From Nitrospirota bacterium (GTDB lineage: Bacteria > Nitrospirota > UBA9217), in assembly GCA_963737155.1 (NCBI GenBank), contig CAVTRN010000001.1:1472001-1536000 (forward strand): a DNA stretch of 64,000 nt. Reading direction: 5' to 3'. Every line of letters starts with the position of its first letter. Position 1 is the first letter of the stretch. A program made the position numbers and the translations under genes. Under the pieces are notes generated by a model. That model did not search any database. It worked only from the letters and a program-made list of their open reading frames with translations, and was not told where the DNA came from. Shown piece after piece: positions 9,636 to 41,564 of this stretch.

Positions 9636-10046
9636 CGCTTGTCACCTCCTGATTTTAATAAATCGTGAGTAAGAATATTAGTAGAACGACTCCTTTTCAA
9701 TAAGTTAATTAGCATAGTTTAATTGAACTGATTACCTGCGCCCGTCGATATAAGTCAAAGTCGTGATTCGCATAATCCCTCAAAACGACGCTAGGTAGCT
9801 GACAGCATAGCCAGAGTGTCAGGTGGAGGGGGCCGTTAAGCCCGTTGCGCCGCACCGTGCCTGTCACGTGCGGCATACAGAACCAGCCTGATGAGCGCGT
9901 GATGTAGTGAAGAACCGACATTAAAACCGCAGGAAACTATGGTCATGGTCGGGATGATGGTAGCTTAGAAAAACATCGATGAGAAAATTAAAGTTTCTCG
10001 TCAACGAGATACCTTTTCTTTTTTGACAAGTGCCATTTAAACGGAT

Positions 10047-10122
10047 GCCTATGAATATTTGCGTAACCGGCGCGGAGCATGCGCCAGCGTGCGAAAAGTC
10101 CAGGTTGACGCGGTGGTTAGGC
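10047..10122 (-). other. Integron attC site (degenerate R' core)
   Basis: Minus strand: GCCTAAC-cacc-GCGTCAACCTGG...CCGGTTACGC-aaatatt-CATAGGC, an imperfect palindrome directly after a minus-strand gene. Confidence 0.7.
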
Positions 10123-11073
10123 ATCAGACGCACTAATGAGATCTGCTGCAGACACCCGTACTCCTTTCTGGGGGATTCTCTTGCCATTTACTCTGACTCC
10201 GTCTTTTAGAAGGTGATCCAGAGTTTCTATGCTCAGGCAAAGCTCACCATATGCGATCGCCTAGATTTTCGAGGCATCGTTTACAGGTGGTCCGATGTAG
10301 TCAAATCGCCCCAGAATATATAGCTGTGCAACTTGGCCAACCGTGACACCGCAGCCGCCAGCAAGATCGTCTGGAATATGTTTCGCGCCATTATCGACAG
10401 TTTCTGCACATGCCAAACAGAACGCCTTCACGTGACCCGCTTGAAATCCGCCGTCGTGCACGGCTGGAACCGAGCCATAACGTCCGGCTTCGGACACAAC
10501 CATAAGGCCATCCCCTGTCCCCTTTGCGAAAACCTGTTTGCATCGAGATCGATAGAAAGCGTCCTGAAATGAATGTTCGAAGATCTCAATAGTTATCTGA
10601 ACCAGCTTGGGATCCTGTTTCGCCGACCAATTTGTAAAACCGCGCAGATCGAAAAATGCGATCAGTGCGGAACAGCCTCGTGCGCGCTCGTCTATGGACT
10701 CCCATTTTGCCACAGGATATCCTACATTATCACCACCCTCAAAGGCCTCCCAGACCGCCAAGCCCTGCTCGTAGACCTGATAGCGACCGTGCGATGCCGA
10801 ACCGAGGAAGTACTCTCGGAAGGCTGGCAGCCATTTTAAAGCGGGGACCATTTTACCCAGAGCACCAAAGAACGGGATGCTTGTGCCGTCAGATATCAGA
10901 AGGATGCCCTCATAGTCGCGGTCTGGATAGCTTGCAAACAGTCTCCACTTGGGAGGTGGCGGAAAATAGGGGTCTCGTTCGACCATGTGCCTGGCAAGTG
11001 ATCGCTGTTGTCGTCGATGAATATCGTCAACAGCCGCTTTGCCTCCTTTTCGTCCATGGATATCGTCCCCCAT
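10123..11073 (-). pseudogene. Class III nucleotide cyclase in a gene cassette, disrupted
   Basis: FFDLRGFT, GDGLMVV, YIGPPVNDASKI motifs. TAG right after SKI with plausible coding sequence continuing. Probable 5' frameshift. GTTAGAC core site at 11085-11091. Confidence 0.7.
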
Positions 11074-24854: not shown

Positions 24855-25049
24855 ATGACTATAAAAAGACTTAATATAGTACAATTTGGTACCAATTCTT
24901 TGCAGAAGGGTGATAGGATAAAAATACCCGAGCCACTTCTTCAAACGCTTAATATCGTTCAAGGACAATTGATTCACATTTCTCTCGATGTAGAAAGTCA
25001 GCAAATTATATTGAAAGCGGTGAAAAAAAATGGGAAAAAGAATAAATAA
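24855..25049 (+). CDS. AbrB/MazE-like small DNA-binding protein
   Basis: RIKIPEPLLQTLNIVQGQLIHISLD swapped-hairpin pattern. Overlaps the R-M gene start. Confidence 0.6.
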   Translation: MTIKRLNIVQFGTNSLQKGDRIKIPEPLLQTLNIVQGQLIHISLDVESQQIILKAVKKNGKKNK

Positions 25050-27456
25050 CAAAAAAATAGCTACACACACTCCACGCACTACGGAAGTAGATGCATACCT
25101 TTTCATCAAAAACAATCTAAAGCTACGCGGGTGGGACATTCGCAATCCAGATCGTAATACGGGTGGTCAAGTTTACACTCAGAATGAATGCCTTGCCCAT
25201 CCCGCGATACATGCCGCACTTAATAAAGATCGACCTGAAAATATAGTTATGTTGACAGAAAAAAAGGTCTGGGTTATAGAAGCTAAAAAGTCGCACAAAC
25301 AAATTGACGATGCTGTTTCAGAGGCTGAGGAGTATGCTCGACGTATTAATGACAATGGACAACTGTCAACAAAGTTTATTAGTGGTGTTGCAGGCAACTC
25401 CGAAGATGGATTCATTATAAAAACCAAAATGCTTGTTGATGGTCGTTACATGCCCGTCAAGATAAATGACGTAGAGATTACGTCACTCTTGTCAAGGAAC
25501 GAATGCATAAAGCTGATAGACTCGGGATTTCCAAGCCTTGATAATCCACCTATTGATGAAAAACTTTTTCTGTCACGAGCCGACTATATCAACGAAGTTT
25601 TACACATTGGAGCCGTGAACCCGCATCAGAGAGCAAACGTAATGTCAGCGCTATTGTTATCAATGCTTGGCGATACGATGCCCAATATAGAGGAACGCCA
25701 GGCCTCGGTATTGATCGGAGATATCAACGGCCGCGTTAAAGCCGTTCTCAAAGCTCAAGGCAAGGAAGGGTTCTATGACTACATTAGGATCGCACTTCCT
25801 TCAACAGCAGATAACCATGTCAAGTTCCGAAAGGCCATGGTCGAAACTATTCAGGAGCTGAATAATCTTAACATCCGATCCGCGATGAATTCAGGAGAAG
25901 ATTGGCTTGGAGCTTTCTATGAGGTTTTCTTAAAATATGCAAACTGGGCTCAGGATCTGGGAATCGTCTTGACTCCGCGGCATATCACGACTTATATAGC
26001 TGATGTGATGGACATACTACCAACCGATATCATCTATGACCCCACATGCGGGACAGGTGGATTTCTAGTAGCGGCTTTTGATTCCATAAAGAAAAAGTCT
26101 ACACCTTCTCAGTTGAAAAAATTTAAAAATAATTCCGTTTTTGGAATAGAACAAGATGCAGGCGTGGCGGCGTTGGCCGTCGTAAATATGATATTTCGCG
26201 GTGATGGCAAAAACAATATTGTTGAAGGAAATTGTTTTTCAAAGTATCTCAAGCCAAGCAATTCATATTCTGCCAAGTACACCAAAAAAGAAAGCGCAAA
26301 TCCACCAGTTACAAAAGTAATGATGAATCCACCGTTTTCTCTGAAAGGCTCTAAACAAAAAGAGTTTGATTTTATTAACCACGCGCTTAAGCAGATGAAA
26401 GATAACAGTATATTGTTTTCCGTTTTGCCATACGCTGCAATGGTCAAGCCAGGAAGATATAAAACGTGGCGTCAGAACACGTTACTTCTAGAGCATACTC
26501 TGTTATCAGTTATCACCTTTCCTGGAGATCTTTTTTATCCTGTGGGTGTTCATAGTGTTGGAATATTTGTCAAAAAAGGTGTGCCACATCCTCAGGGACA
26601 ACAGATACTCTGGGTAAGGGCTTTGAATGATGGCCTTGTTAAATCTAAAGGCAAGAGACTACCTAGTAGTCGCGTTCCAAATGACCTTGAGGTCATAAGG
26701 GATACTTTGCGTCAATTTTTGCATAATCAGAGCATGAAGGTTTCGAGCCGCCAACAGTTCGTCAAAAAGGCTTCATTATCATCGGACGATGAACTTGTGG
26801 AACTGGTGCCAGAGGCTTATTTAAAGCAGGCGAAACCGGATTCCGACGCTATCTTAAAGAAAGTCGAGCAAGAAGAGCGCAACATCTTGGCTTACCTGAT
26901 AAAAAATAACAAAATCACTTTTTTTGGGAAAAGAATAGTTCCTGATCCAAAAAAACGAAATAGAAGCATTCGACGCTGGAAATCTTTTAACGTTACAGAT
27001 ATATTTGATGTCTCTCGAGGCGACTTCCATTCTATTGCCGCCTTGGACGCTGGCAAATATCCTACAATATCTCGTGTCAGTACAGATAACGGTTTGGTGG
27101 GGTTCTTTGATAAACCACAAGGTGCAACACTCTATAAACCTGGGACTATAACTATCTCAACAGTAACTGGCGATGCCTTTATTCAGCCAGTTTCATTTAT
27201 TGCTACAGACAATGTTTTACTTTGCGTCCCAAATAAAGAATACGAATCTCTTAGCTCAGCAAGCCTCTTGTTTATAAATGTTATGTTGAATGAAGTGAAA
27301 TGGCGGTATGGCTATGGCAGGCAACCTTATCTGGCGAAGTTTAAGATCACGGAAATCATGCTGCCCGTAGATAATGCGGGTGCGTTAGATGAAGATTATA
27401 TGGACAATGCTGTGAAATCGGTACCAATATGGACATTGATTAAGAATTTTTTTTAA
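25030..27456 (+). CDS. Type IIG/BcgI-like restriction-modification enzyme (endonuclease, N6-adenine MTase and specificity domain in one chain)
   Basis: PE...VIEAK nuclease motif, YDPTCGTGGFL (motif I), MNPPF (motif IV), C-terminal HsdS-like TRD (KWRYGYGR). Confidence 0.88.
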   Translation: MGKRINNKKIATHTPRTTEVDAYLFIKNNLKLRGWDIRNPDRNTGGQVYTQNECLAHPAIHAALNKDRPENIVMLTEKKVWVIEAKKSHKQIDDAVSEAEEYARRINDNGQLSTKFISGVAGNSEDGFIIKTKMLVDGRYMPVKINDVEITSLLSRNECIKLIDSGFPSLDNPPIDEKLFLSRADYINEVLHIGAVNPHQRANVMSALLLSMLGDTMPNIEERQASVLIGDINGRVKAVLKAQGKEGFYDYIRIALPSTADNHVKFRKAMVETIQELNNLNIRSAMNSGEDWLGAFYEVFLKYANWAQDLGIVLTPRHITTYIADVMDILPTDIIYDPTCGTGGFLVAAFDSIKKKSTPSQLKKFKNNSVFGIEQDAGVAALAVVNMIFRGDGKNNIVEGNCFSKYLKPSNSYSAKYTKKESANPPVTKVMMNPPFSLKGSKQKEFDFINHALKQMKDNSILFSVLPYAAMVKPGRYKTWRQNTLLLEHTLLSVITFPGDLFYPVGVHSVGIFVKKGVPHPQGQQILWVRALNDGLVKSKGKRLPSSRVPNDLEVIRDTLRQFLHNQSMKVSSRQQFVKKASLSSDDELVELVPEAYLKQAKPDSDAILKKVEQEERNILAYLIKNNKITFFGKRIVPDPKKRNRSIRRWKSFNVTDIFDVSRGDFHSIAALDAGKYPTISRVSTDNGLVGFFDKPQGATLYKPGTITISTVTGDAFIQPVSFIATDNVLLCVPNKEYESLSSASLLFINVMLNEVKWRYGYGRQPYLAKFKITEIMLPVDNAGALDEDYMDNAVKSVPIWTLIKNFF

Positions 27457-27759: not shown

Positions 27760-28407
27760 CTAAAGTTCAGTTAACCCCTCGCGTATAGCAAACTTCGTGA
27801 GTTCTGCAATACTATGGATATTAAGTTTCTCCATAATCTGCTGTCGATGGAATTCGGCCGTTTTTATGCTTACCTGAAGCACCGATGCGATGTCTTTTGT
27901 TTTCTTGCCTTCGGACAATAGTTGCAAAACCTCGCGTTCCCTTGCCGTAAGGATAGATAATATTGAGAGTTCCTCTTTGGATATACGAGACACATAATCT
28001 TTAACAACAATATCCGCAATCTTCGGGCTAAGGTATGTACGGTTAGATGCCACGACCTGTATGGCATGGATGACTTCGTCAAAAGCACAGTCTTTCAAAA
28101 GGTACCCAGTAGCGCCGGCGTTGAGTATTTCAAGGATCACACGCCGCTCAGTATGCATTGAGAGTGCTATAATTTTTGAGTCGGCACTTGACGTTAGTAT
28201 CTGACGGGTAGCCTCTATACCGTTAAGCCCTGGCATGGAAATATCCATAATAACAATATCGGGTAACAATTTAGTTGTTAGCTGCACAGCAGTCCGCCCA
28301 TCCTCGGCTTCAGCTACCACGGTCATGTCCGGTTGTTCCTTAATTAATGACCGGAGACCTTCGCGCATCAACTTATGATCATCGGCAAGAACAATTTTAA
28401 TGCCCAT
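27760..28407 (-). CDS. NarL/FixJ-family response regulator (REC plus LuxR HTH)
   Basis: LADDH, MDISMP, GYLLK, LTAREREVLQLLSEG...HRQQIMEKL. Confidence 0.95.
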   Translation of the reverse strand: MGIKIVLADDHKLMREGLRSLIKEQPDMTVVAEAEDGRTAVQLTTKLLPDIVIMDISMPGLNGIEATRQILTSSADSKIIALSMHTERRVILEILNAGATGYLLKDCAFDEVIHAIQVVASNRTYLSPKIADIVVKDYVSRISKEELSILSILTAREREVLQLLSEGKKTKDIASVLQVSIKTAEFHRQQIMEKLNIHSIAELTKFAIREGLTEL

Positions 28408-28433: not shown

Positions 28434-30284
28434 TTATAATTTTATCGGTGATACCAGAATTACCTTCGTGCCAGCACCCGCTTCCGTTTCGATCTCACAA
28501 TACCCTCCCATCCGTTTCATGCGGTCGCGTATAGTGAACAGTCCAAACCCTTTATTCTTCCTGACAGCTGATACTGTGTCAAAACCGATTCCATTATCCG
28601 CAACGGTAATCATAATATTGTTGTCTGTTCTAGTGAAAGACATCATAACGGTATCTGCTTTCGAATGTTTGACGACGTTTACGATCAACTCTCTAACACA
28701 TCTGAAAAGAAGATAACGAGCATTGTCATCTATTGGTTTGGGCTGGCCATCATCCTCGACTATGACTTGTATACCGTAAGTCCTTTCGAACCCTTCCGCG
28801 AGATCTTCAACAGCTTCCTTAAGACCAAGTTCAACCAAAACAGGGGGGCTGAGCTCGACCGTCAATGACCTCGTGTGTTGAATTGTCTGTTCAATAATTT
28901 TACGTAGTTCCTCCACTTGCCCTATTGATTCAGAAGACGAGAGAGATCTCCGAAGCATGCCCAGTTTGAAATTCAGCGCCAACAGATTTTGACCCACAAA
29001 ATCATGCAGGTCTGCAGCTATTAGATTGCGCTCCCGTTCTTCGATCCGCGATTCAAAGGATAACATTTCGGATGTTACAGAATGGAGCTCCTTTTGATAA
29101 GTGCGAATTTGATCCTCCATTCCTTTTCGTGCAGTAACATCACGGGCGATAATTAATACTGCCTGGAGGCCAGTGAAAACAAACGGGGATACGGACATTT
29201 CTACATCCAATGTTGTCCCATCTAATTTGAGAAGCTTTGCTTGGAGAAGAGGAGGAATTGTGCCAAATTCCTGGACCTGTTGAATGCGCTTCCATATATA
29301 GTCTCTGTCTTTCTCGTTTATATGGTTCAACATTTGCTGCCCCAAGAGCTGAGAAGAATCTAGTGCTCCCAGAAGCTTAGCTCCCGATGTGTTTATAAAC
29401 ATTAAATTATCGTCATGCTGCACGTAGATGCCATCCGGCGAGAGTTCGACTAGTCTGCGATAGCGTTCTTCACTATCGCGCAACGAATTTTCCGCATGCC
29501 CACGCGCGACAATCATTGCATTGAAGGCAGCAGAGAGGTTTCCAACCTCATCAGTTGTTTCAACGGGCAACGGGTTGATTGGCAAACCTTTTTCAAAAGC
29601 TTTTACATCTTCGGTAAGTGTTTTCAATGGGCTTGTAACCTTTTTTACTAGCAAGTGGATAATGGTGATACTGGCGATGATAAAAATAACCATTATGACG
29701 ACATTTTGTTCAACGACGGAGGCAATCTCGTGTCGATAGGTATCCTTACTCAGTGTAATGCTAACGTATCCTATTATTTTTGCTGGTTGAGCCGCCGTAG
29801 GAGCATTTAAATAAAGCGTTTCGTCTACTTGTGCCGCAGGTTGTAATACGACTGGCTTGACGAACTCGAAAGTATCCTGTGTCTCCACGATGCTTAGCGA
29901 ACCAGTAAAATCATGCTTGTCTACAGAGTTATCGCCTGTTGTAGCCAGACTTGAAACGGAGGATGTTTTACGCTTGCTGTAGAGAACTTTCGCATTAGAG
30001 TTGTAAATTGTTATGGATAAGACATCTTGCAGACCGATAACGTCTGTTGCGATATCTTTCAACATTTCCTCATTTTCCGCAAAAACACCCACTGTTGCTC
30101 TTTTCGAGAGAAGTCTCACAAGGATTTCCCCCCGGTCCCTCAGGTACTTCTTTTCTTTATTGCCTTCTCGGACGACTGAAAACAGGGTTTGTGCAGTCAA
30201 TACGAAAATAATTACGATAATGACTGAGAATACAATTCGGAAGCCCAGGTTTTCTTTAAAAGTGCGATAAACTTTCTTATTCAA
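28434..30284 (-). CDS. Membrane sensor histidine kinase (periplasmic domain, HAMP, PAS, HisKA_3, HATPase)
   Basis: Two TMs, DEVGNLSAAFNAM, PAS, ERERNLIAADLHD, DNGIGF, GFGL. Confidence 0.93.
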   Translation of the reverse strand: MNKKVYRTFKENLGFRIVFSVIIVIIFVLTAQTLFSVVREGNKEKKYLRDRGEILVRLLSKRATVGVFAENEEMLKDIATDVIGLQDVLSITIYNSNAKVLYSKRKTSSVSSLATTGDNSVDKHDFTGSLSIVETQDTFEFVKPVVLQPAAQVDETLYLNAPTAAQPAKIIGYVSITLSKDTYRHEIASVVEQNVVIMVIFIIASITIIHLLVKKVTSPLKTLTEDVKAFEKGLPINPLPVETTDEVGNLSAAFNAMIVARGHAENSLRDSEERYRRLVELSPDGIYVQHDDNLMFINTSGAKLLGALDSSQLLGQQMLNHINEKDRDYIWKRIQQVQEFGTIPPLLQAKLLKLDGTTLDVEMSVSPFVFTGLQAVLIIARDVTARKGMEDQIRTYQKELHSVTSEMLSFESRIEERERNLIAADLHDFVGQNLLALNFKLGMLRRSLSSSESIGQVEELRKIIEQTIQHTRSLTVELSPPVLVELGLKEAVEDLAEGFERTYGIQVIVEDDGQPKPIDDNARYLLFRCVRELIVNVVKHSKADTVMMSFTRTDNNIMITVADNGIGFDTVSAVRKNKGFGLFTIRDRMKRMGGYCEIETEAGAGTKVILVSPIKL

Positions 30285-31212
30285 CGATATTCCTCTGGGT
30301 CAATAAGTCGTCAGCTATCTTTAATCCCATTTTGGCCGCCACCTTGATATTAATAGAAAGAGTTGACTTTCGTGCATAAACGCGAATAGCACTCGAATTG
30401 CCCGCTAATATCTTGTTAGCAATTTCAGAGGCTTGTACGCCCATGTCATAAGGATCAATATCCAAGGCAGCTATGGCCCCCATTTCGACATACTTCCTTG
30501 AAAAAGAAAATATCGGGATGTGATACTGGAAAGAAAAATTAAGCAGATAGTCGACCATCTCCGGCGTAACAACTGTTGGATCCGGCAACATCCAGTAAAC
30601 GTCTACCTTCCCCCTTAATCCGCTCAATACGCTTGGTATTTTAGAGGGGTCGCTGACAGCACTTGTTATAAGTTCTAGCCCTGCCGCATGAGCAACTTTT
30701 GATGCCGCGTCGACAAAAGAGGCTGTATTTCGTGGATCATATAGAAGTCCAATTCTTTGTGCCTTGGGGAACACTTTCATGATGGTGGCTATGTAGGTTT
30801 CTGGAGAGATGTCCATGCTCACGCCCGAAATGTTCGAATTTAAAGGGAGGGGTGTTTCCCATGGCACAACCATAGTATAAATGATCGGGAAATTCCTAAT
30901 CGCCTTGACTTTATTGAATGACGCCGTTCCAATAGCCATGATGATTTTGGGTGAGTCATGAATAACTGCTTCTATTCCTTCTCCATCCTGAAGCTTTACT
31001 TCGGGCACTTTGCAGCCACAAGCATCCTCGAAACCGCGAAGAACATCCCTGTAAGGTTTCAGATCGGCGGTTTTAACAGCGATTACTTCGCTCGCAAAGG
31101 TTTGCATGGAGTAACCTGCAGTAAAAGTCGCGAAAGCTGCCAGGGCAAGAAGAATAGCCGTTATTCGAGATAATTTATGTGGGGATAAGGTAGCCATGAA
31201 TGGTGGGTACAA
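30277..31212 (-). CDS. ABC-type periplasmic substrate-binding protein with no cognate permease
   Basis: Signal peptide, RIGLLYDP, WMLPD, GAIAAL, INIKVAAKMGL. Confidence 0.85.
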   Translation of the reverse strand: MYPPFMATLSPHKLSRITAILLALAAFATFTAGYSMQTFASEVIAVKTADLKPYRDVLRGFEDACGCKVPEVKLQDGEGIEAVIHDSPKIIMAIGTASFNKVKAIRNFPIIYTMVVPWETPLPLNSNISGVSMDISPETYIATIMKVFPKAQRIGLLYDPRNTASFVDAASKVAHAAGLELITSAVSDPSKIPSVLSGLRGKVDVYWMLPDPTVVTPEMVDYLLNFSFQYHIPIFSFSRKYVEMGAIAALDIDPYDMGVQASEIANKILAGNSSAIRVYARKSTLSINIKVAAKMGLKIADDLLTQRNIVE

Positions 31213-31225
31213 TGCGGTTTAATAA

Positions 31226-32524
31226 TTACAAATTGTACTTAATATCTTGAGCGACGAGCTGCCTGAGGGTTTTTTCGAAATATTCCTTTTGACAAATGAC
31301 GCCGTTCATCTCTCCAGCGTGGATTAGTTTCATATATCTGCATCCGCCGAAACAGAGAGGAAGAAAGCTGCACTCGAGACATTCTTCGTTTTTCCAGGCA
31401 TCGATTCCGTGTGACTTATTATAGTCAATCAGACCGTCAGTAATATTGCCAATGCAGCAATTCTTCCTGCCGATCATCCCCGGACACTTGTAAAGGGTGC
31501 CATCGTAATTCACGACAAGGCTGTCAATCAGCTCTACCATGCATGGTATTGGCATAACTTTTTGAGTACCATATCCTCTTCGCAGTACTTCTTCCCGGAG
31601 GAAAAGGGTAGCTTCGGCTATCCAAGGTTCATTAGGTGAATCGCAGCCATCGTGAAAATCAGGTGGAGCAAATTCGTTGCTCTCGCTAATGACAGGATCG
31701 AACTTGATGACAGAAATCTTATCAGGAGTGAGCCCGTTCTCTGACAAATAATCGAGAAGAAGAGGAAACTCGCGATAATGATTCTGCGTATAATTGCCGC
31801 CTATCTGAATGTGGGTCATAGCACATACTTTTTTAATATTGCTCAATATCAGATCAAATGAACCACGGCCCGATTTGAAAGGCCTATATCTGTCGTGGAT
31901 ATATTTTGGACCATCAAGTGTAACTTTCGCACCTTTCAAACCGAGTGGCGTCAGTATTTTAACTACTTCCGTTGTCAGCAACGTACCGTTTGTCACAAGG
32001 GTAAAGCTATATTTTACGGCTTTCTGCTCCGCATAGGCTCGCATTTTATGCGATATATCAATAATGGTTTCAAGACTTAAAAGCGGTTCGCCGCCATAAA
32101 AAACGATTTTTATCTCCTCCTTTTTTGACAAATCATTCCTTTTTATCGCAAAATCTACGAACTGAGTAGCTGTATCCTTTGATAAATGGAACTTGCCTTT
32201 CCTTTTGCCTTCAAAGCAATATTTGCATCTGAGGTTGCATTCAAGGTTCAAGACTACAATATATTTGGCTGATCGGTCCACATTATTCATTTCATAGAAG
32301 AAGGAAAGCATCTCTTGCTGTTCTTCTTCCAAACTATGCACGAGGAATCCGAGGTTATAAAGCGTTTCCTTGTCTTCCTCCGTCAGCCTGCCTTTGTCAA
32401 TATCTTCTATCAGGCTGGAAGGTATAAGTCCAGCGGCCGCATTTTTAGTAGAAAAAATCAAAACGGAATCTTTGTCAGCGGCGGACGAGTACAGTTTAGT
32501 ATATTTCGATAGTTTTGAAGGCAT
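31226..32524 (-). CDS. Radical SAM/SPASM peptide maturase (geopeptide-maturase-like)
   Basis: CNLRCKYC, FYGGEPLL, TNGTLL. SPASM C...YKC...CLEC...CFGGC...C. N-terminal RRE-like extension (LSKYTKLY...LIFST). Likely start ATG 32524. Confidence 0.9.
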   Translation of the reverse strand: MPSKLSKYTKLYSSAADKDSVLIFSTKNAAAGLIPSSLIEDIDKGRLTEEDKETLYNLGFLVHSLEEEQQEMLSFFYEMNNVDRSAKYIVVLNLECNLRCKYCFEGKRKGKFHLSKDTATQFVDFAIKRNDLSKKEEIKIVFYGGEPLLSLETIIDISHKMRAYAEQKAVKYSFTLVTNGTLLTTEVVKILTPLGLKGAKVTLDGPKYIHDRYRPFKSGRGSFDLILSNIKKVCAMTHIQIGGNYTQNHYREFPLLLDYLSENGLTPDKISVIKFDPVISESNEFAPPDFHDGCDSPNEPWIAEATLFLREEVLRRGYGTQKVMPIPCMVELIDSLVVNYDGTLYKCPGMIGRKNCCIGNITDGLIDYNKSHGIDAWKNEECLECSFLPLCFGGCRYMKLIHAGEMNGVICQKEYFEKTLRQLVAQDIKYNL

Positions 32525-32600
32525 ATGGTTTATAATGGGAACAAAAATATATCTTTGATAAGCGAGGGGGAGAGATAGGAAATATCCCCCCCAATGTTTA

Positions 32601-32702
32601 TTAAAAAATGTCAAGAGGAATCAATGCTCCATAACAACACCCTGCATTCAGCATGTCTTTCTTTTCGACACCCTTTTTTACGACTATAATATTCTTTTTC
32701 AA
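32601..32702 (-). CDS. RiPP precursor peptide MKKNIIVVKKGVEKKDMLNAGCCYGALIPLDIF (geopeptide-like), missing from the ORF track
   Basis: SD AAAGGGGGTGA, then TTG start, 33 codons and TAA. GVE leader motif and CC core. Lies between the TonB receptor and the rSAM gene. Confidence 0.85.
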   Translation of the reverse strand: MKKNIIVVKKGVEKKDMLNAGCCYGALIPLDIF

Positions 32703-34361
32703 GAGTCTCACCCCCTTTCTTGTAATTTATCATCCCTCACATGAGGATATTGAAGCTAGAATTTATATCGTATCCCAGCTTCCAACCAACGCCCTGGATT
32801 ATTGTATACATTAAAAAGATACTGATTGCTATCGAATATATTATGGATATCAAAGAGAGCTTCTACAGACTGATCTTTATTTAAATAGAGATTTTTAATA
32901 ACATGTAAATCAACAATGAAAGAATCATATTCTCCTTGATTCGATGGACTTGCATTCCAGTAGATATAATGTCCTTGCAATCGAACCTTGAGGGATTGCT
33001 CAACGTCATATTGGAGGCCTATGTCATAGGTCCTCTGCGGGTCATTCGGTATAGCCTGGCCAGTAAGCTGGTCCTTCGCCGTCATAAAAGCCGCGCCCGC
33101 GCTAAGTGAAGTATGGTAGACAGGCAGAGTCTTCATTTCTAATTCCATCCCTTGTATTCGTTCTTGTCCGCTGTTTTCTGCAATAAATGTTGAGTTTGAA
33201 AGCTGGTCCGTTACAAGTGCGTCTTTTATATCATGCCTGAATAGGGAAAGTTTAAGCCAAACATACGGCAAATCCGTCGACTCCATACCCATTTGATAAG
33301 ACCACACCTGCTCCATCTTCAAGTCAGGGTTTGCTACGTGTAATAAACCGTCTCCATACGTTGTCGCAAGGGGGGGAATATTGAAACCGCGGGCGGAAGA
33401 GGCGCGTAACAGGGTGTTGTCCGTGATTTTGTAAGTTATGCCGAGGCTTGGGCTTGTGAAGTTCCCGTTTGTATTTGTTACATCATAACGAATTCCCGGA
33501 GTTATGGACAGTTTATCTATTGATATGGTGTCGTTAATAAAATAAGCATCTCTTTTTATTCCTTGCTCGCCGTCGGCAATCGCATTTGACACTAATTTTC
33601 TGGAATCCAGGTCTGAGCCCAGAACAACGTTATTGTATTGCTGTTTCCAGATTAATTTTGCACTCGTACCGTACCCCGTATCCACGTAGCGGTCCTGTGA
33701 AAGCTCCGAGCCGGTGCTTAACTGATCGTCATTAAAAACGAAATCCTGTCGCGATGACCAAGCAGACAAATCGAATTCGGTATCACTACTGACCATTGAC
33801 TTCATTGACAAAGTTGTAAATAAGGTTTCAATGTCATTATTAACCGCGAGGTCGAAACTAGGGAGTTCGACAACACCACGCGACAGGTTGTTATAGTTCA
33901 TCGTAAATATTAAGCTTGTGTCTTTTGTTAAATCATAATTCAGTTTCGCATAAGCGTTATTCCCATCATAGCTATTATTGGGCCTGAACCCATCGGTTTG
34001 CAATCTGCCAGCGGTCACATAGTATCCAAATTGGTGCTGTTCGCCTAAGGTTTCTATTCTTAGGTCCTGCGTATTTCTCTCGCCATAGGTAGCCGATATT
34101 GTTCCGTTGACGCCGGTCCCGCTGCCCGACTTTGTGATAATATTTATAACACCGCCAAGCGCAGAGCCCCACGCAGAGGAGGCTGGACCCTTAACTATTT
34201 CTATTCTCTCGATGTTCTGAACTGGAAGCATACCGATGTCAACGACATTATCACTCAGATCATTCAGTGGAACACCATCCATGAATACGGCAACATGACT
34301 CTCGTCCGAGTCCTGAATTTGTGCTTCAGCACTACTGCCTGGACCTCCTGTTAAAAACACT

Positions 34362-35885
34362 CAGGTTATACTGTTTTTAGTTGAAATTGAAAAGAGTGGC
34401 TCCCCCGTGGCATAATCCACGGTAGAGAGAGAAAAAAGAAAGGAGCCACTCAATGAAGGATACCACAAGGAAGAGAAAAAAGGCAATACGAGGAATTGAA
34501 GAGGCATACGGAAGGCGGGAGATCATCGAACAGATGTATTGTGTCTTCGCAAAAGGGAAACAGGGTTTTGATGAATGCATGAAGGAAATGGGCAGAATGA
34601 TGGCAGAGACGATCATGTACATCGAGCGGGAGGAGATTGCCGGCCCCGACTACCAGCCTAACAGTCCCGATCTGCGGAAGTGGGCTAGCCAGGGCGGTTC
34701 CGTCTATATCGGAGATCAGAAGATCCCGGTGACCCACCCTCGGCTTCGAGGTCCGGCGGGTGAGATTGTACTGCAGAGCTATCAGAAGATGAAAAAACCG
34801 GAAGTCTTCGCAGAAGAATTGCTTGGAAAGGTGCTTCGGGGCATATCATGCCGGAAGTATGCGGAGACAGTTGTAGATACGGCACGAGCATTTGGAGTGT
34901 CCGCCAGCACGGTATCGAGCCATATCGTCGCGGCAACAGCAAAACAGCTTCAGGAGTTTAAGGAACGGTCACTCACGTCATTCGTTCCCTTTGCGGTCTT
35001 TTTAGACACTGTTCACCGCGGCGGAGAGGCATTCATCGTGGCGCTGGGGCTTGATATTGCCGGAAAGAAGCAGACATTGGGGTTCTGGCAGGGGGCGACG
35101 GAGAACCATGAACTGTGTGAAGAGCTGTTTTCTGATATAGAGCGGCGAGGTCTGATACTTTCACGACGAATCATCTGGGTTACCGATGGCGGCAAGGGCG
35201 TAATCAAGGCACTCCGGGATCGCTTCGGTAAGAAACTCATCCATCAGCGGTGCACGATCCACAAGGACCGGAATATACAGCATCATTTGCCGAAGAAATA
35301 CCGGAAAGGCGCACACTGGAGGTTCCGGACAGCCCTGGAGCAGAATAATTACGCGGACGCTCGTCAGATGCTTCTGGACATGGAGAAATGGCTTCGGGGC
35401 ATTAATGAGTCGGCGGCTGATTCGCTCATGGAAGCGATAGAAGACATTCTCACCCTTCATCGATTGAAGGTCCCCGCTCTCTTGAGGAAGACGTTGCATT
35501 CTACCAATCCTATCGAGAGCATGTTTTCCACGGTGAGAAAAGCAGAAGGCAATATAAAGCGCTACCGCGACAGCAAGATGATGCAGCGCTGGCTCGCTTC
35601 TGTCCTCTTATATGCTGAACAAGGATTCAGAAAGATCAAGGGCCACGCCTTCATCGCGGACGTGATGAAACGGATCGAAGCGGAAGAATTAAATGACCTA
35701 ACAGTCAAAGAGGCTGCGTAAAGGGGGATGGTTAGGTATGGCTCGGCCTCAGAAAACTCACATATGGCGATCCTACGAATCCGATTTTATAAACAGCGAT
35801 GATTTACACCGTTGAACCGATAAAAATACTTTAGCCGAAGGGAACGGGCCACTCAGATAATTTCAACTAAAAGCTTGACCTCGTC
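34362..35885 (+). mobile_element. IS256-family insertion sequence
   Basis: 8-bp TSD AAAACACT (34354-34361 and 35886-35893). Imperfect IRs sharing TTTTAGTTGAAATT. Confidence 0.92.
34453..35721 (+). CDS. IS256-family transposase
   Basis: FLD, VTDGGKG, QRCTIHKDRN, STNPIES. Confidence 0.93.
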   Translation: MKDTTRKRKKAIRGIEEAYGRREIIEQMYCVFAKGKQGFDECMKEMGRMMAETIMYIEREEIAGPDYQPNSPDLRKWASQGGSVYIGDQKIPVTHPRLRGPAGEIVLQSYQKMKKPEVFAEELLGKVLRGISCRKYAETVVDTARAFGVSASTVSSHIVAATAKQLQEFKERSLTSFVPFAVFLDTVHRGGEAFIVALGLDIAGKKQTLGFWQGATENHELCEELFSDIERRGLILSRRIIWVTDGGKGVIKALRDRFGKKLIHQRCTIHKDRNIQHHLPKKYRKGAHWRFRTALEQNNYADARQMLLDMEKWLRGINESAADSLMEAIEDILTLHRLKVPALLRKTLHSTNPIESMFSTVRKAEGNIKRYRDSKMMQRWLASVLLYAEQGFRKIKGHAFIADVMKRIEAEELNDLTVKEAA

Positions 35886-36303
35886 AAAACACTTGCACGC
35901 CTGTGACAGTATTTAACACGTCTGCGACAGTATGAGCGTTCATATTTTTGATATCTTCTGCTGTAATAACGGTCACATTTTCCGCGGTCTGTGCTAGAGA
36001 TGTTTTACCGCGTGTCGGCGATTCTACATCAAGATCCTCTTCTTTATAATAAATCAGGAGTTCCTTTTTGTCTTCATCGTTTTCAGCATATACAATAGAT
36101 GAGAACATAAATAAGAAACTAGCGAAGGCTAGAAGGACGCTGATGAGATAGAAGAAGGCTTTCATAACGTTTATCCGTAAAGGAGTGTCAACTGAGCATA
36201 TCGTTGAAGGAAAGGCATTAATAATTCAGAGAATCTAACAATAATATTTGATCAGTCGATGTTATAAAACAGTGAAATATTATGTTTTTAACATTTAAGT
36301 GCG

Positions 36304-36332
36304 AGTATATTCAGCGCTTCAAATATTGTCAA
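36304..36332 (-). promoter_or_regulatory. Near-consensus sigma70 promoter of the TonB-peptide-rSAM-TCS operon
   Basis: Minus strand TTGACA-17nt-TATACT. Confidence 0.75.
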
Positions 36333-36384
36333 GATTTATCGCACGAGCCGGGTTATTTCACGCGGAAAATATTGCAATCAAAGC

Positions 36385-36449
36385 AAGGTATTTGGAAGCT
36401 AAAACTAGGGAATCCCTTGGTTGATTTTATAGTTCATGATTAAAATACT
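36385..36449 (+). promoter_or_regulatory. Regulon box F
   Basis: AAGGTATTTGGAAGCTAAAACTAGGGAATCCCTTGG-TTGATT. Confidence 0.55.
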
Positions 36450-36656: not shown

Positions 36657-37157
36657 GCTTTTGCTTAAAAATATTCAGATGATTGCGACGACATTTGCAG
36701 AAATTAGAATGATAAAAATACAGCATGGAATTACAGGTAATTGCTGCTAGATGCATTGTAAGCGGATTATCTGCTCAATGATGCTGCAGCTCCAATGTAG
36801 CTCCAATGTTAATTTGTAATTTAACAGAAAGAATTTAACAAGAGGCAACCGGCACCAGTGAAATTGCTACACAGAAGTGCATCATTCCCCCAATCACGCG
36901 TTTAAAATTGAGTAGTGTAGCATAATCTTTCTACAGTGATTTTCGTTCTGATCGAAGTAAAGAGCCTGATATTCTCGAACGCTGGGGACAATTCACTTTC
37001 GTGGCGAACCATATTAAATTCATTTAGCTCAATTTACCTTAAACAGAACCTTTTTGCACGCATTCCGAGCGATCTTTGCGTGATACTGATTTCTTGGCAT
37101 TATGCAATTTAGGTGACGGGATATTCCCAATCTTACAAGCTTCTTTGGTGGAGGTTT

Positions 37158-40100
37158 ATGATGGATCAGCAGAGTAGAAATCATCGCAGATTACCCGTAC
37201 TGGAACATTGCTCATTAGTGAAGAGACTCTATCTTATGATCTCAGGATTGATCGTCGCAATGAGCTTATGGACAATGATTGCAATGATATTGCCTTCTGA
37301 ATCTTATGCAATCTGTTTGCAAGGATCTGGAGCGACTGCAAATCAAATAGTTTTTTGTGATACTCAAACGGAAGCTTTGGCTGCAGCAAGTGGCTATTGC
37401 AGTAACTCGGGCTCAAATTGTTGCACTTTTGCAGTTGGAGAAACTTATTCTAACTCTTATTGTGGTCCCTTTGGGTGCGGCACCGCAGGGGGGGAGGTAG
37501 ACATTAACAATTGCGGCGTAACTGCTTATCCCATTATCTTCGGGAACTGCGACGAAGGCGCGACTCAGTCCTGCACAGAAAACTATCTTAACGGGGTACA
37601 GTGCAACGGCACACAGACCTGCTTGCCTAACGCCCAGTATGGCTATTGCGCACTCTTTGATCCGTCGTGCTTACCATGTTCTGATGGTCAATCACAGAAC
37701 TGTGCTTATACCTGTCCTTCGGGTATACAGATCACCGGCACACAGGCCTGCGAGAACCAACTGTTCGGCTCCTGTTATGCTGATCCATTAATATGTCAGC
37801 AAGCAGTATGCAATGATGGCCAGACATTGCCTTGCAACACTTACGACATTGCGGGGAATCAGTGCTACGGTGCTCAGACATGCAGTGGCGGCCAGTGGGG
37901 ATACTGCCAGCCTGGCTCAACGTGCGCAACATGCCTCGGCAGCAGTAGTCAGTTATGCATTGCAACAGATATATTGGGGAATCAATGCAACGGTTCTGAG
38001 ACATGCAGTGGCAGCCAGTGGGGACCCTGCCTGCCAACCGGCCCGTCGTGCGCAGTATGCTCACCCAATCAGACCCAGACATGTTCATGTCCCATTGGCG
38101 GGGGAACTCAAACATGCTCTTCTTCTGGACAATGGAGTGCATGCTCATGCATAGTTGCATGCCAAACTGGTGATTGCGGTAATACCAGTAATGGTCCCCA
38201 GAGTAATACCACATGCATCAATTCATCTGCAAATCTAAAAAGTGGCAATCTCACTCATAATCAAGATGTAATTACAGCGCCCAAGAGCTTGCCCTTTTCA
38301 TTAACCTACAATAGCAATGACATTACTGTAGGACCGTTAGGACGTGGCTGGACCGATACGTATAATGTGTTCATTTCCGCTGCAACGAATACTTCTGGAA
38401 GTATCTCGTCACTTATTTTGACAGAAAATAGCGGTAACAAAATAATGTTCTCTCCTTCCAGCAGCCTATATTCCCCCAGTGCAGGCAGCGGGGACACATC
38501 AACCATAGTTGTCAATGCCGACGGGACTTATACCCGCACTCTAAAAGACGGGACCCTGCAAACATTCAATACTTCCGGCATCCTCAATACAATCAGTGAC
38601 CGGAATAACAACACCACAACGTTGTCCTACAGCGGCGGAAATCTGGTTACTATAACCGATTCTACAGGAAGATCGCTCAGTATTGCAGCAGCAAGCGGCC
38701 AGATAGCATCGATAACTGATCCTTCTGGCCAGACCTACAAATTTTCTTATAATGGCAATTTACTGATGGCAGTCTCTGATCCTTCGGGCGATATATGGAA
38801 CTACACCTATGATGCTAACGGCAGAATGCTCACCAAGACAGATCCGGCAGGTTTCCAGTCGATCTACGCCTATGATGTCAACGGAAATCTTATAAGCACA
38901 ACAGACCCCAATGGAATGGTAAAAACCATGACGTATAACCAAGCCTTGAATGAGGCACAGTTTGTGGAAATAGACGGCGGGGTTTGGTATCAGTTTTATG
39001 ATCCTAATCTAAACCTGCCGACACAGACAATGGCGGTGGATCCGAACGATAACGAATATATAACCAACTACACTTATGACAGCAACGGCAACATGCTCAC
39101 TAAAACGGACCCGGATGGGGACGTTACTACTTACACTTATGACGCAAAGAGCAATGTAACTTCGATAATAAATGCTCTTGGCCAAAAAACAATCTATACG
39201 TACAATAACTTCTCCGAGGTCACGTCAATGATAGACCCCTTGGGGAACAACACCACGTACACTTACGACGCCAATGGGAATCTTTTATCCACAACTGATC
39301 CATTGGGAGTTGTCACCACATATCAGTATGACACCAAAGGCAATGAAACAAGAGCTACCAATGCCTTAAATCATACCACCAAACTAACTTACGATAAATA
39401 CAATAACATCGCATCAGTCACCGATCCGGCGGGCGACAAATCCACGTTCACGTATACTATAAACGGCAAAATGACTAGCCTGACAGATGCCAACGGCAAT
39501 ACAACAACATTAACGTATAATAACCTAAATCAACTGATTCAGGTCGTTGATTCGGAAGGAAACACGACACTATATGCTTATGACAAGGATGGCAACCGGA
39601 CAATGCGGGCCGATGCAAACGGCAATGCAACGTATTTCGCGTATAACTTTAAAAGACAGCCCACGATGGGGAAGAATGCGTTAGGTGGCATAACGAGCCT
39701 CAACTACACAGGAACTGGTTGCGAATTCTGTGGTGGGAGTAGGTACCAACTTGCTGCCCTTATAGACGCGAATGGGAATACCACATCCTACTCGTATGAT
39801 ATACTCGGGAGGCTCATCAACCAAACCGATTCTCTCGGAAATGGAATAATGTATTCCTATGATCCCGCGGGCAACCTGACCACCGTCAATAAAGCCGATG
39901 GAGCCACTATACACTATGCCTATGACGCAACTGGCAGACTGTTGACAAAATCCTATCCTGACGGCTCGACAACTTCCTTTACTTATGATGCCAAGGGTAA
40001 CATCCTCACAGCCACAAATAACAATATTTCCTATACCTTCACCTACGATGCAGACGGAAGAGTGGCGAGCGTAGCAGACCATTTTAATGATCTGGTGAAT

Positions 40101-41564
40101 TATGCGTATGATGCTGTTGGAAACAAAACGCAAACGCAATTAATTTCTCCTTCTGGCGATTCAACTGATAGTTATATTTATGATTCCACAAACAGACTTA
40201 GTAAAATTAAAGATGAGGCTAAGACTTTCACTTTTGCATATGATAAGACTGGAAAACGCACGAACCTCACTCTTCCGAACGGAGCGTCTGCAAGTTACAT
40301 ATATGACTTGTCCGGCAATTTAACAAGCTTGATAAATACTTCTTCAACTGGTACTATTATCGCAAGCTCTGCCTATACCTTGGACAAGGTTGGAAACAGG
40401 CTGACCTCGTCCGGAGTGAATGGTGAGAATTCGTACAGCTATGACGCTGTATACGATCTACTATCTGCGCAGCCTGGGGGCAACGCCCAGTATGGTCCTG
40501 AAGAATACACATATGATCTGATGGGCAACCGTCTTACGGGGCCGAAGTCGAATCAAACCTATACCTTTAACCAGGACAACCAGCTTGTCACTGAAAACAA
40601 GCAACAGTTCCAGTACGACAATAACGGGAACCTTATAAGCTATGTAACCAGATCGACCACATCCAGTTATTCTTATGACTTTGAAAACAGGCTGACGCAA
40701 GTGATCACGGCCAGTACCGACACCGTAACGACGACAGCATACGCCTACGACCCCTTTGGCCGAAGGATTCAAAAAAGCGTAACAACAGCAGCAGCAGGCA
40801 ACACAATTGCCACAAGCACATACTACATCTACGACGGACAATCTGTTTTACTTGAAAACACTGACACCGCCTCAGGCGGAGAAGTTACAATCCGTTATAT
40901 CCAAGGTCCCAACATAGACGAGCACCTGGCAATGGTCCGAGTCAATGACAATACTTACAACTACTATCATGCAGACGGTCTAGGCTCGATAGTCGCGATA
41001 ACGGATAAAAATCAGCAAATAGATGAAACATACACCTATTCAGCATTTGGTGTGGTCACGAGTGTGGGTAATGGAATAAATAACCCTTATAGCTTTACTG
41101 GCAGGGAATGGGATTCAGAAGCAAGCCTGTACTATTATCGGTCTAGGTATTATAACCGGAAGATAGGGAGGTTTATCAGCAAAGACCCAATAGGGTTTAT
41201 AGGTGGTTTGAATCTATACCGATACGTGGGAAATAATCCTATTAACTTTAGAGACCCATATGGACTTAATCAAGAACTCTATGGGTGGATTAGTAATTTC
41301 ACTCAGGAGGCTTTTACAAGCACCATCGAAAACCTATTACCTGAGTCTCTTGAAGCGCCCCTTCAAGCGGCAGGCTATGCGTTAGGCGTGCTTGATCCGT
41401 TCCCTCGGGAACTTAATGCGGAAGAAGATGCTATGGTCTTAATAACACAGAGTCAAGAGTTTGGTGCAGCTGTTGATCAGTTGGCTATAGATACTGTGAA
41501 TACAAGTGATCAACTTGAACAATTAATTAATGATGAAAATGAGAGAATAGGTAACTGTCATTAA
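37158..41564 (+). CDS. Sec-secreted RHS/YD-repeat protein with Cys-rich repetitive N-terminus (RHS1)
   Basis: GGAGG RBS, signal peptide (SYA|), repeated G-x-QTC-xGxQWGxC modules, DUF6531-like LTYNS/LGRGW, YD repeats, HADGLGS...NNPINFRDPYGL cleavage motif, about 95-aa CT. Confidence 0.93.
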   Translation: MMDQQSRNHRRLPVLEHCSLVKRLYLMISGLIVAMSLWTMIAMILPSESYAICLQGSGATANQIVFCDTQTEALAAASGYCSNSGSNCCTFAVGETYSNSYCGPFGCGTAGGEVDINNCGVTAYPIIFGNCDEGATQSCTENYLNGVQCNGTQTCLPNAQYGYCALFDPSCLPCSDGQSQNCAYTCPSGIQITGTQACENQLFGSCYADPLICQQAVCNDGQTLPCNTYDIAGNQCYGAQTCSGGQWGYCQPGSTCATCLGSSSQLCIATDILGNQCNGSETCSGSQWGPCLPTGPSCAVCSPNQTQTCSCPIGGGTQTCSSSGQWSACSCIVACQTGDCGNTSNGPQSNTTCINSSANLKSGNLTHNQDVITAPKSLPFSLTYNSNDITVGPLGRGWTDTYNVFISAATNTSGSISSLILTENSGNKIMFSPSSSLYSPSAGSGDTSTIVVNADGTYTRTLKDGTLQTFNTSGILNTISDRNNNTTTLSYSGGNLVTITDSTGRSLSIAAASGQIASITDPSGQTYKFSYNGNLLMAVSDPSGDIWNYTYDANGRMLTKTDPAGFQSIYAYDVNGNLISTTDPNGMVKTMTYNQALNEAQFVEIDGGVWYQFYDPNLNLPTQTMAVDPNDNEYITNYTYDSNGNMLTKTDPDGDVTTYTYDAKSNVTSIINALGQKTIYTYNNFSEVTSMIDPLGNNTTYTYDANGNLLSTTDPLGVVTTYQYDTKGNETRATNALNHTTKLTYDKYNNIASVTDPAGDKSTFTYTINGKMTSLTDANGNTTTLTYNNLNQLIQVVDSEGNTTLYAYDKDGNRTMRADANGNATYFAYNFKRQPTMGKNALGGITSLNYTGTGCEFCGGSRYQLAALIDANGNTTSYSYDILGRLINQTDSLGNGIMYSYDPAGNLTTVNKADGATIHYAYDATGRLLTKSYPDGSTTSFTYDAKGNILTATNNNISYTFTYDADGRVASVADHFNDLVNYAYDAVGNKTQTQLISPSGDSTDSYIYDSTNRLSKIKDEAKTFTFAYDKTGKRTNLTLPNGASASYIYDLSGNLTSLINTSSTGTIIASSAYTLDKVGNRLTSSGVNGENSYSYDAVYDLLSAQPGGNAQYGPEEYTYDLMGNRLTGPKSNQTYTFNQDNQLVTENKQQFQYDNNGNLISYVTRSTTSSYSYDFENRLTQVITASTDTVTTTAYAYDPFGRRIQKSVTTAAAGNTIATSTYYIYDGQSVLLENTDTASGGEVTIRYIQGPNIDEHLAMVRVNDNTYNYYHADGLGSIVAITDKNQQIDETYTYSAFGVVTSVGNGINNPYSFTGREWDSEASLYYYRSRYYNRKIGRFISKDPIGFIGGLNLYRYVGNNPINFRDPYGLNQELYGWISNFTQEAFTSTIENLLPESLEAPLQAAGYALGVLDPFPRELNAEEDAMVLITQSQEFGAAVDQLAIDTVNTSDQLEQLINDENERIGNCH

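Follow-up and report, generated by a model that had tools for sequence, protein, structure and literature searches.

A hidden peptide gene beside a radical SAM maturase in a Nitrospirota bacterium probably encodes a divergent geopeptide precursor linked to uptake and sensing genes

Introduction

What is made from a 33-codon reading frame lying between a TonB-dependent receptor gene and a radical S-adenosylmethionine (SAM) enzyme gene, and what would its product do? The frame occupies positions 32601 to 32702 on the minus strand of a 64,000-nucleotide stretch of DNA from a Nitrospirota bacterium (assembly GCA_963737155.1, contig CAVTRN010000001.1, positions 1,472,001 to 1,536,000), which in its full length is called the window below. 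An earlier reading of this DNA (the original prediction) took the frame for a hidden, geopeptide-like precursor with a core of two adjacent cysteines (CC). We put at about 0.85 the probability that it encodes a divergent geopeptide precursor with a Lys-rich leader, belonging to the class of ribosomally made peptides with post-translational modifications (RiPPs) and accompanied by a linked maturation and sensing gene set.

Geopeptides have so far been a pair of in-silico families, TIGR04229 for the peptide and TIGR04280 for its radical SAM maturase. A search of the open literature, with subscription journals and supplements outside its scope, returned no paper on the geopeptide product, its chemistry or its role. 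The window adds a divergent member of this kind in another phylum.

Results

A conserved small gene lies between the receptor and the maturase

The locus is centred on the following features.

32601..32702, minus strand: precursor peptide gene, 33 codons plus TAA with a TTG start, translating to L/MKKNIIVVKKGVEKKDMLNAGCCYGALIPLDIF (stop)
32718-32708, minus strand: Shine-Dalgarno-like AAAGGGGGTGA, 5 nt before the TTG
31226..32524, minus strand: radical SAM maturase, probably of SPASM type, of 432 amino acids (aa) (TIGR04280; Radical_SAM, Fer4_12)
32756..34360, minus strand: C-terminal piece of the receptor, 534 codons (TonB_dep_Rec_b-barrel 141 bits, Plug positions 40-107)

The sequence and its translation agree with the hidden 33-aa minus-strand frame that the original prediction had described, including the Shine-Dalgarno block and the TTG start codon (32702-32700, minus strand). 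The product can be divided into a leader (about residues 1-11, MKKNIIVVKKG), the pair C22-C23 and a tail of 10 residues. As had also been described, the gene sits between the receptor and the radical SAM enzyme: it begins 53 nt past the stop of the TonB-dependent receptor frame at 32756-34360, and 76 nt separate its end from the maturase ATG at 32524, with the peptide gene upstream on the same strand. The earlier suspicion that the enzyme frame had been over-extended proved right. Its longest form, from TTG 32614, overlaps the last 14 nt of the peptide gene. Homologues and family model instead start from ATG 32524; public protein sets contain both forms, of 432 aa (NCBI/ENA) and 462 aa (Logan). 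A GTG at 32711 was rejected as the peptide start, as it lies within the Shine-Dalgarno block and the homologues align to the TTG. The gene is single-copy in its own genome. A public collection of about 15 billion proteins does not contain the 33-aa sequence in its exact form; no recorded gene calling includes it.

Maturases above the TIGR04280 cut-off occur in 15 of 61 related genomes, and in 14 of the 36 within the window's own family (E ≤ 1e-60). The set of genome loci numbered 18; L022, L024 and L026, in which the maturase is cut by the contig end, were excluded. A search of 450 nt upstream of the enzyme found a CC-containing small open reading frame (ORF), 54-219 nt away on the same strand, in 16 of the 18 loci. 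A seventeenth CC peptide lies about 700 nt upstream (L021 = L034), right behind the receptor gene and with a helix-turn-helix (HTH) gene in between; the eighteenth locus (L023) has an enzyme below the cut-off. Scanning metagenomes with the maturase alignment gave 80 loci, 29 of them at ≥ 37% identity. Among these 29 the peptide was present in 26 (25 found by script, L074 by eye), and the three misses have only 73-123 nt of upstream DNA. The TIGR04280 cut-off was passed by all 22 full-length enzymes tested from the metagenome loci and by that of a Nitrospirota metagenome-assembled genome (MAG), 23 in all, and CC peptides also stand beside four of six remoter enzymes (29-31% identity, 254-328 bits). 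The original prediction had named a lack of conservation beside orthologous maturases as what would refute it; this outcome did not occur, since a homologue stands there in 17 of the 18 genome loci and in 26 of the 29 from metagenomes.

Two of these loci carry an insertion between peptide gene and maturase. In L034 an HTH gene at 9956-10288 on the plus strand, near a BrnA-like antitoxin gene, separates the two; in L074 about 1.35 kb of foreign DNA (~720-2072) does so. The peptide gene stays beside the receptor gene in both despite the inserted foreign DNA.

The coding signals are equally regular. A Shine-Dalgarno block (GGAGGTGA / GGGGGTGA) precedes the start by 5-8 nt in 16 of 16 genome loci, and M1, K9, C22 and C23 are invariant in the 16 genome peptides, with R4, I5 and K10 nearly so. 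Nine genes of the short form (as opposed to the poly-Lys form described below) give a lower non-synonymous than synonymous divergence (pN < pS) in 36 of 36 pairs, with means of 0.30 for pN and 0.79 for pS, and the invariant Cys, Gly and Arg are encoded by varying synonymous codons. A chance ORF is ruled out by conservation and pN < pS. Judged by homologue conservation together with these coding signals, the small ORF is thus a genuine conserved, translated gene.

Few of its relatives bear a name. A profile search of 5.8 billion protein clusters, made with an alignment headed by a 51-aa homologue, recovered 32 relatives, none named past 'hypothetical protein', and the ESM Atlas returned unnamed clusters only, at 0.86-0.87, below the meaningful level. 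The closest named record is the Nitrospirota MAG, which has a 65% identical maturase, the same receptor-peptide-enzyme order and the peptide MKNRIIVLKKGVDKKGVVSGGCCAMAFIPIR; it was the sole true relative in a scan of genome contigs with the single maturase as query.

The neighbouring enzyme belongs to the geopeptide maturase family

The enzyme scores 567.8 bits on TIGR04280, the geopeptide radical SAM maturase model, against a cut-off of 400, with residues 4-430 aligned on positions 2-427 of 428, and it is the only TIGR04280 gene in the genome. The next NCBIfam families (TIGR04463, CefB, Clo7bot and PapB) are far under their own cut-offs, and all are Cys-peptide maturases. A CxxxCxxC motif at C96/C100/C103 is invariant in 12 sequences (Pfam Radical_SAM, 49.9 bits), as are further cysteines at 294, 328, 347, 382, 385, 391, 395 and 411, giving a Cys-rich C-terminal half; no Pfam SPASM match is listed at E ≤ 0.1. 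Compared with solved structures, the maturase profile matches CteB (5wgg/5why) at E 1.1e-30. The AlphaFold2 model of the maturase has a predicted local distance difference test (pLDDT) score of 81.6 and a predicted template modeling (pTM) score of 0.83. Its top Foldseek match is again CteB, over the full length and with a template modeling (TM) score of 0.65-0.69, followed by TigE, anSME, ChlB and SuiB. Residues 9-82 of the model form three strands and three helices, as in the recognition domains of such enzymes.

The peptide follows the plan of a family that its curated model under-detects

We aligned 42 peptides (40 unique) on their CC pair and derived from them a common plan, which is ours and not a curated one. 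A hydrophobic strand ending in Gly (IVVLDEG, IVVLKKG, IIVVKKG) is followed by a spacer, CC and a short tail. CC is invariant among the 42, the tail measures 7-10 residues in 39 of them, and 9-12 residues lie between the leader Gly and CC in all 30 short forms with a motif match. No residue past CC is conserved across the 42 peptides. The window peptide fits the plan with IIVVKKG, 10 residues, CC and a 10-residue tail. Leaders are basic in the window's clade (VLKKG, VVKKG) and acidic in most of the distant members (VLDEG, the commoner form). The Lys-rich leader noted in the original prediction is indeed distinctive, since it marks the VLKKG clade and the (KKKAT)n relatives against acidic VLDEG leaders.

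The geopeptide model TIGR04229 is the only NCBIfam match of the window peptide (13.5 bits, E 0.048; residues 11-26 of the peptide align with positions 7-21 of the 22 in the model). Among peptides beside above-cut-off maturases, the curated cut-off of 30 bits is reached by none of 17 from the genome loci, the window's included, and by 1 of 23 from the metagenomes. Only L016 matches among the 15 other genome peptides (12.3 bits), and L034, scanned separately, scores 11.6 bits. Of the metagenome peptides, L063 passes at 32.1 bits, eleven score 13.2-24.9 and eleven have no match. The scores therefore form a continuum from 32.1 bits down to none, and TIGR04229 is too narrow for the family that the enzyme defines. 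Given this continuum and the shared plan, we place the window peptide in the geopeptide family by context and plan, though not by the curated model alone. The likeness proposed in the original prediction, for which it had suggested searches with both geopeptide hidden Markov models (HMMs), is supported: the maturase passes (567.8 against 400 bits), and the peptide, which falls short of its own narrow model (13.5 against 30 bits), follows the shared plan.

In the same genera, sister precursors have 4 to 12 KKKAT-like repeats inserted after the leader strand and ahead of the CC core. These poly-Lys precursors lie upstream of maturases in L009, L010, L011, L013, L017, L020, L027, L043, L044 and L046, with leader net charges of +17 to +40 and, in L046, a leader of 78 residues. 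Three genomes (G004, G012 and G013) hold short-form and poly-Lys systems together.

Leader charge varies together with one part of the enzyme. Across 24 short-form pairs, which include relatives and are not independent, so that the nominal p-value overstates the case, the net charge of the leader correlates with that of enzyme residues 1-85 at a Spearman coefficient of -0.74 and with that of the remainder of the enzyme at +0.26. Basic leaders pair with acidic N-terminal domains (-3 to -7, with one exception at 0) and acidic leaders with near-neutral ones. Such co-variation fits leader binding at the N-terminal domain and does not prove it. On the evidence of gene order, family and plan, the peptide is very probably the substrate of the downstream radical SAM/SPASM enzyme, which would act on the Cys pair.

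A GC-rich hairpin recurs behind the peptide gene

One further feature lies between peptide and maturase genes.

32566..32592, minus strand: GC-rich stem-loop, from the minimum-free-energy (MFE) fold

The hairpin had been placed at about 32566-32592 in the original prediction, and the MFE fold pairs exactly these positions. Taken alone, the window hairpin is not beyond chance: the spacer folds at -15.8 kcal/mol (z = -1.04), as well as which 28 of 200 dinucleotide shuffles fold, and for its first 60 nt z is -1.71 (15 of 200 shuffles). A simple scan for promoters and terminators found 0 terminators, and 5 promoter-like sites against 5.3 expected by chance. Support for the hairpin comes from its recurrence in relatives. 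A GC-rich stem-loop stands right after the peptide stop in 16 of 16 genome loci, and in 33 of 41 loci the fold has z < -2 when compared with dinucleotide shuffles. Close relatives share a nearly identical stem (GAGGGAGAGC/GCUCUCCCUC); distant loci have GC stems of quite other sequence, several of them then followed by U-runs. Such hairpins are common in operons of this sort. The element is likely a partial terminator or an mRNA-stabilising structure, with a weak copy in the window.

A short ORF with tandem identical codons, a GC hairpin within 8-20 nt and then a gene is also the layout of a regulatory leader peptide, in which ribosomes would pause at the two Cys codons and attenuate the radical SAM gene in the style of the trp leader. 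We regard this as extremely unlikely. Protein-level conservation extends to the leader motif, its distance from CC and the length of the tail, the leader charge co-varies with the enzyme's N-terminal domain, and an enzyme of a peptide maturase family with a probable recognition domain needs a substrate.

A receptor, a binding protein and a two-component system accompany the maturase

Downstream of the maturase gene lie three further genes.

30277..31212, minus strand: periplasmic solute-binding protein (PF04392 ABC_sub_bind, 112.2 bits)
28434..30284, minus strand: sensor histidine kinase (transmembrane segment, sCache_4, transmembrane segment, HAMP, PAS, HisKA_3, HATPase_c)
27760..28407, minus strand: NarL/LuxR-type response regulator (REC and GerE)

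Ten wide loci from relatives were compared, nine of which have an above-cut-off maturase. In these nine, the maturase is accompanied by a receptor in 9, a binding protein in 8, a kinase in 8 and a regulator in 6. The 29 metagenome loci, many of them on short contigs, show a receptor in 23, a binding protein in 12 and a kinase in 4. Gene order is variable: the receptor-peptide-enzyme genes are divergently oriented to those of kinase and binding protein in L050, L055 and L061, and the peptide and enzyme genes to those of receptor and binding protein in L051, L058, L059 and L063. This linkage survives changes of gene order, which argues for a functional tie within the gene set. The kinase itself is conserved in its sensor half (residues 1-260), and its output half varies, from HisKA_3 to HisKA plus a receiver.

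Stimulation of sensor kinases by binding proteins is an established mechanism (PMC10443332). We predicted a complex of the periplasmic domain of the kinase (38-196) with the mature binding protein (41-311) and obtained a score of 0.53, against 0.32 for the best of 3 controls. Of 80 solved complexes 58 attain the mark used for such scores, as do 2 of 110 mismatched pairs, and at 0.60 or under stand only 7 of the 80 solved complexes and both of the passing mismatches; these calibration counts are only rough here, as the prediction used our own alignments. At least 91% of the contacts are common to the runs, and the partner has a pLDDT of at least 89. The model lends weak support to a contact between the binding protein and the sensor domain of the kinase.

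The same partners could serve a different end. The peptide might be a metallophore with thiol or thioether ligands, comparable to methanobactin for copper, secreted under anoxic or sulfidic scarcity, re-imported via the receptor and handed to the binding protein, with the two-component system reporting supply. The invariant feature of the peptides is a Cys pair, their conserved partners are a TonB-dependent receptor of their own and a periplasmic binding protein, and the receptor's nearest NCBIfam models are those of B12, siderophore and haem receptors, all under their cut-offs. Against this, no ABC (ATP-binding cassette) permease or ATPase gene for cytoplasmic import stands beside the binding protein, whose partner is instead a sensor kinase with a conserved sensor half; no metal-related gene is conserved in the flanks; and one enzyme and two Cys make a thin ligand set. 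We consider a metallophore unlikely.

Outside the six genes the flanks differ from locus to locus. Two other accounts of the peptide were weighed. It might be a scaffold from which a small cofactor is excised, in the style of PqqA/PqqE or MftA/MftC, the cofactor then being scavenged by the receptor. Radical SAM/SPASM enzymes with an N-terminal recognition domain do make pyrroloquinoline quinone (PQQ) and mycofactocin, PqqE is among the fold matches of the maturase, and the NCBIfam family of TonB receptors for PQQ (PqqU) is among the weak matches. Yet no tailoring proteases or oxidases are conserved beside the maturase, unlike in pqq or mft clusters, and the 7-10-residue tail is constrained in length and not in sequence, which makes a scaffold highly improbable. 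An antimicrobial, bacteriocin-like RiPP aimed at competitors is just as improbable. Many sactipeptides are antibiotics, and the nearest Atlas cluster with a Pfam family belongs to a lantibiotic family, at a chance-level score of 0.76; however, genes for immunity, an ABC exporter or a peptidase are not among the conserved ones, and a producer does not normally maintain its own uptake receptor and sensor for the toxin it makes.

Some loci carry additional genes. In four metagenome loci the next gene after the maturase is a half-size one of the major facilitator superfamily (MFS), directly adjacent, whose product of 186-199 aa matches the MFS_1 model in its first half (L049:1422-1979, L050:5802-6368, L052:4770-5327, L053:5817-6413); the peptides of these loci have acidic leaders, and the half-MFS protein is a candidate exporter. 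A PmbA/TldD-family metallopeptidase gene adjoins the receptor gene at L030:12569-13939 (minus strand), in this one locus only and perhaps by chance; this family processes the leader of microcin B17. In L047 (288-4337) two tandem TonB-dependent receptor genes precede the peptide gene.

An insertion sequence splits the receptor gene in the window

Upstream of the peptide gene, the window departs from its relatives.

34362..35885, plus strand: insertion sequence (IS) of the IS256/Mutator family that splits the receptor gene, ends approximate
34453-35721, plus strand: IS transposase (Transposase_mut, 121.6 bits)
35884..36165, minus strand: N-terminal piece of the receptor, 93 codons, with the signal region (Plug 27.6 bits, positions 3-37)
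36304..36332, minus strand: promoter-like block TTGACA...N17...TATACT upstream of the receptor gene, inferred from the alignment
36372-36386, minus strand: TTGC-N7-GCAA palindrome upstream of the N-terminal piece
22272-24116, plus strand: DDE_Tnp_1 transposase
25030-27456, plus strand: fused N6_Mtase/Methylase_S restriction-modification protein
37113-41564, plus strand: ORF of 1483 aa, Cys-rich in its N-terminal region and with many YD-type repeats, judged from its translation only

The two receptor pieces lie about 1.5 kb apart and form one contiguous gene in relatives, the N-terminal piece aligning to the N-terminus of the intact receptors. The element between them has perfect inverted repeats of 14 nt (34375-34388 and 35859-35872) and is flanked by the 8-bp AAAACACT at 34354-34361 and 35886-35893. 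Read-through of a TGA codon as selenocysteine, considered for the short N-terminus of the receptor, was rejected in favour of the IS as the cause. Eleven near-identical copies of the element are present in the genome, so the IS256-type insertion is probably recent. With its receptor gene split, this genome has probably lost the uptake step, and transcription from the receptor promoter into the peptide gene may be disturbed, as the IS now lies between the two. The enzyme, binding-protein, kinase and regulator genes are intact.

The promoter-like block and the palindrome may serve as promoter of the operon and as a site for a regulator; they are common to the closest relatives only, which is too little for a regulator site. 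The gene set is embedded in mobile and variable genes, which include the transposase, the restriction-modification protein and the 1483-aa ORF listed above.

Discussion

Proposed mechanism

Our reading of the locus as a divergent geopeptide system leads to the following scheme. The putative N-terminal recognition domain of the enzyme would bind the short hydrophobic leader strand (IIVVKKG) and thereby bring Cys22-Cys23, 9-12 residues past the leader Gly, into the active site. One or both Cys sulfurs could then be joined by thioether to carbons of the 7-10-residue tail. Because the enzyme resembles CteB and the core has a Cys pair, such a cross-link, as made by the CteB-type maturases of sacti- and ranthipeptides, has by analogy about an even chance of being the modification. 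The hairpin after the stop would raise the peptide message over that of the enzyme. The mature peptide would leave the cell and re-enter across the outer membrane via its dedicated TonB-dependent receptor; in the periplasm the PF04392 protein would bind it and activate the sCache_4 histidine kinase and the NarL-type regulator.

We propose this receptor-gated peptide-sensing loop tentatively as the function of the peptide. A precedent for a signalling role exists in clostridia, where ranthipeptides have been connected with regulation and quorum sensing (review PMC8102284, citing Chen et al. 2020). More doubtful is the wider suggestion that the locus represents a new kind of signalling circuit for outer-membrane bacteria, in which a RiPP autoinducer passes an energy-dependent gate, in several anaerobic phyla. 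If true, the circuit would have been overlooked as a gene of about 30 residues is rarely annotated.

Evidence that weighs against the reading

A number of observations count against this scheme, in whole or in part. The peptide stays below the curated TIGR04229 cut-off. The window's TTG start is unique among the 16 genome loci, and Asn stands at position 4 where 15 of the 16 peptides have Arg4; the window hairpin is among the weakest of the loci compared and is without a T-run. These three traits may or may not reflect relaxed selection or early decay after loss of the receptor. With the poly-Lys forms added, the correlation of charges loses its significance (-0.29, p 0.10, n = 33). As to chemistry, no acceptor is conserved after CC, the Asp/Glu or Thr/Asn of known ranthipeptides not being fixed, and oxidation of Cys in the manner of anSME could also lie within reach of the modeled fold; the modification might even be of a new type. 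As to export and processing, no leader protease or exporter is conserved in the gene set, as judged from the flanks of the compared loci, and the half-MFS gene, carried by only 4 loci, has no specific orthologue in the window's genome. As to sensing, a complex prediction with support this weak tends to be wrong rather than right when the pairing was not already likely, as the predicting tool itself states, and the three solved PF04392 proteins bind aromatic amino acids, not peptides (PMC10443332).

Significance

TIGR04229 under-detects its family, so the substrate gene often goes unannotated, as in this genome, and a rebuilt peptide model would recover missed precursor genes. The family extends to a Nitrospirota-like lineage with basic leaders and to relatives with (KKKAT)n leaders. 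The conserved gene neighbourhood would further tie a radical SAM peptide to uptake across the outer membrane and to two-component sensing, a link that to our knowledge is undescribed for enzymes of the sacti- or ranthipeptide type.

Comparison with known systems

The nearest comparison is with the geopeptide system itself (TIGR04229 and TIGR04280), whose canonical form is represented here by metagenome loci and the HMMs. In both the enzyme is above the cut-off, the peptide gene lies directly upstream and the peptide has the same plan; L063, the sole peptide to pass TIGR04229, likewise has receptor and binding-protein genes as neighbours. The window peptide differs in its score (13.5 as against 30 bits), in a basic (VVKKG) rather than acidic (VLDEG) leader and in having a Nitrospirota MAG, not Geobacter, as its closest named record.

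With CteB/CteA (thermocellin), PapB and the maturase of SCIFF (six cysteines in forty-five residues) peptides, the window enzyme probably shares the architecture of recognition domain, radical SAM domain and SPASM domain. CteB is the best match in sequence and fold, and both systems have a Cys-containing core. The identity is about 20%, however, and the window core is one adjacent Cys pair and not a set of spaced Cys, with no conserved acceptor residue and in a diderm with an outer-membrane receptor.

Methanobactin operons, which encode the precursor MbnA, a TonB-dependent transporter and a periplasmic binding protein, resemble the window in that a small precursor with essential Cys is encoded together with a receptor and a binding protein of these types. 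They differ in that the window has a radical SAM/SPASM enzyme in place of MbnBC and no sigma/anti-sigma pair, and that its binding protein adjoins a sensor kinase.

LuxP-LuxQ, finally, in which a membrane histidine kinase receives a signal by way of a periplasmic binding protein, offers a parallel for the sensing step. In both cases the genes of binding protein and kinase are adjacent and conserved together, and a contact between the two proteins is predicted for the window with weak support. The families are different (PF04392 and sCache_4 in the window), and the ligand proposed here would be a modified peptide that passes a TonB-dependent receptor before it reaches its binding protein.

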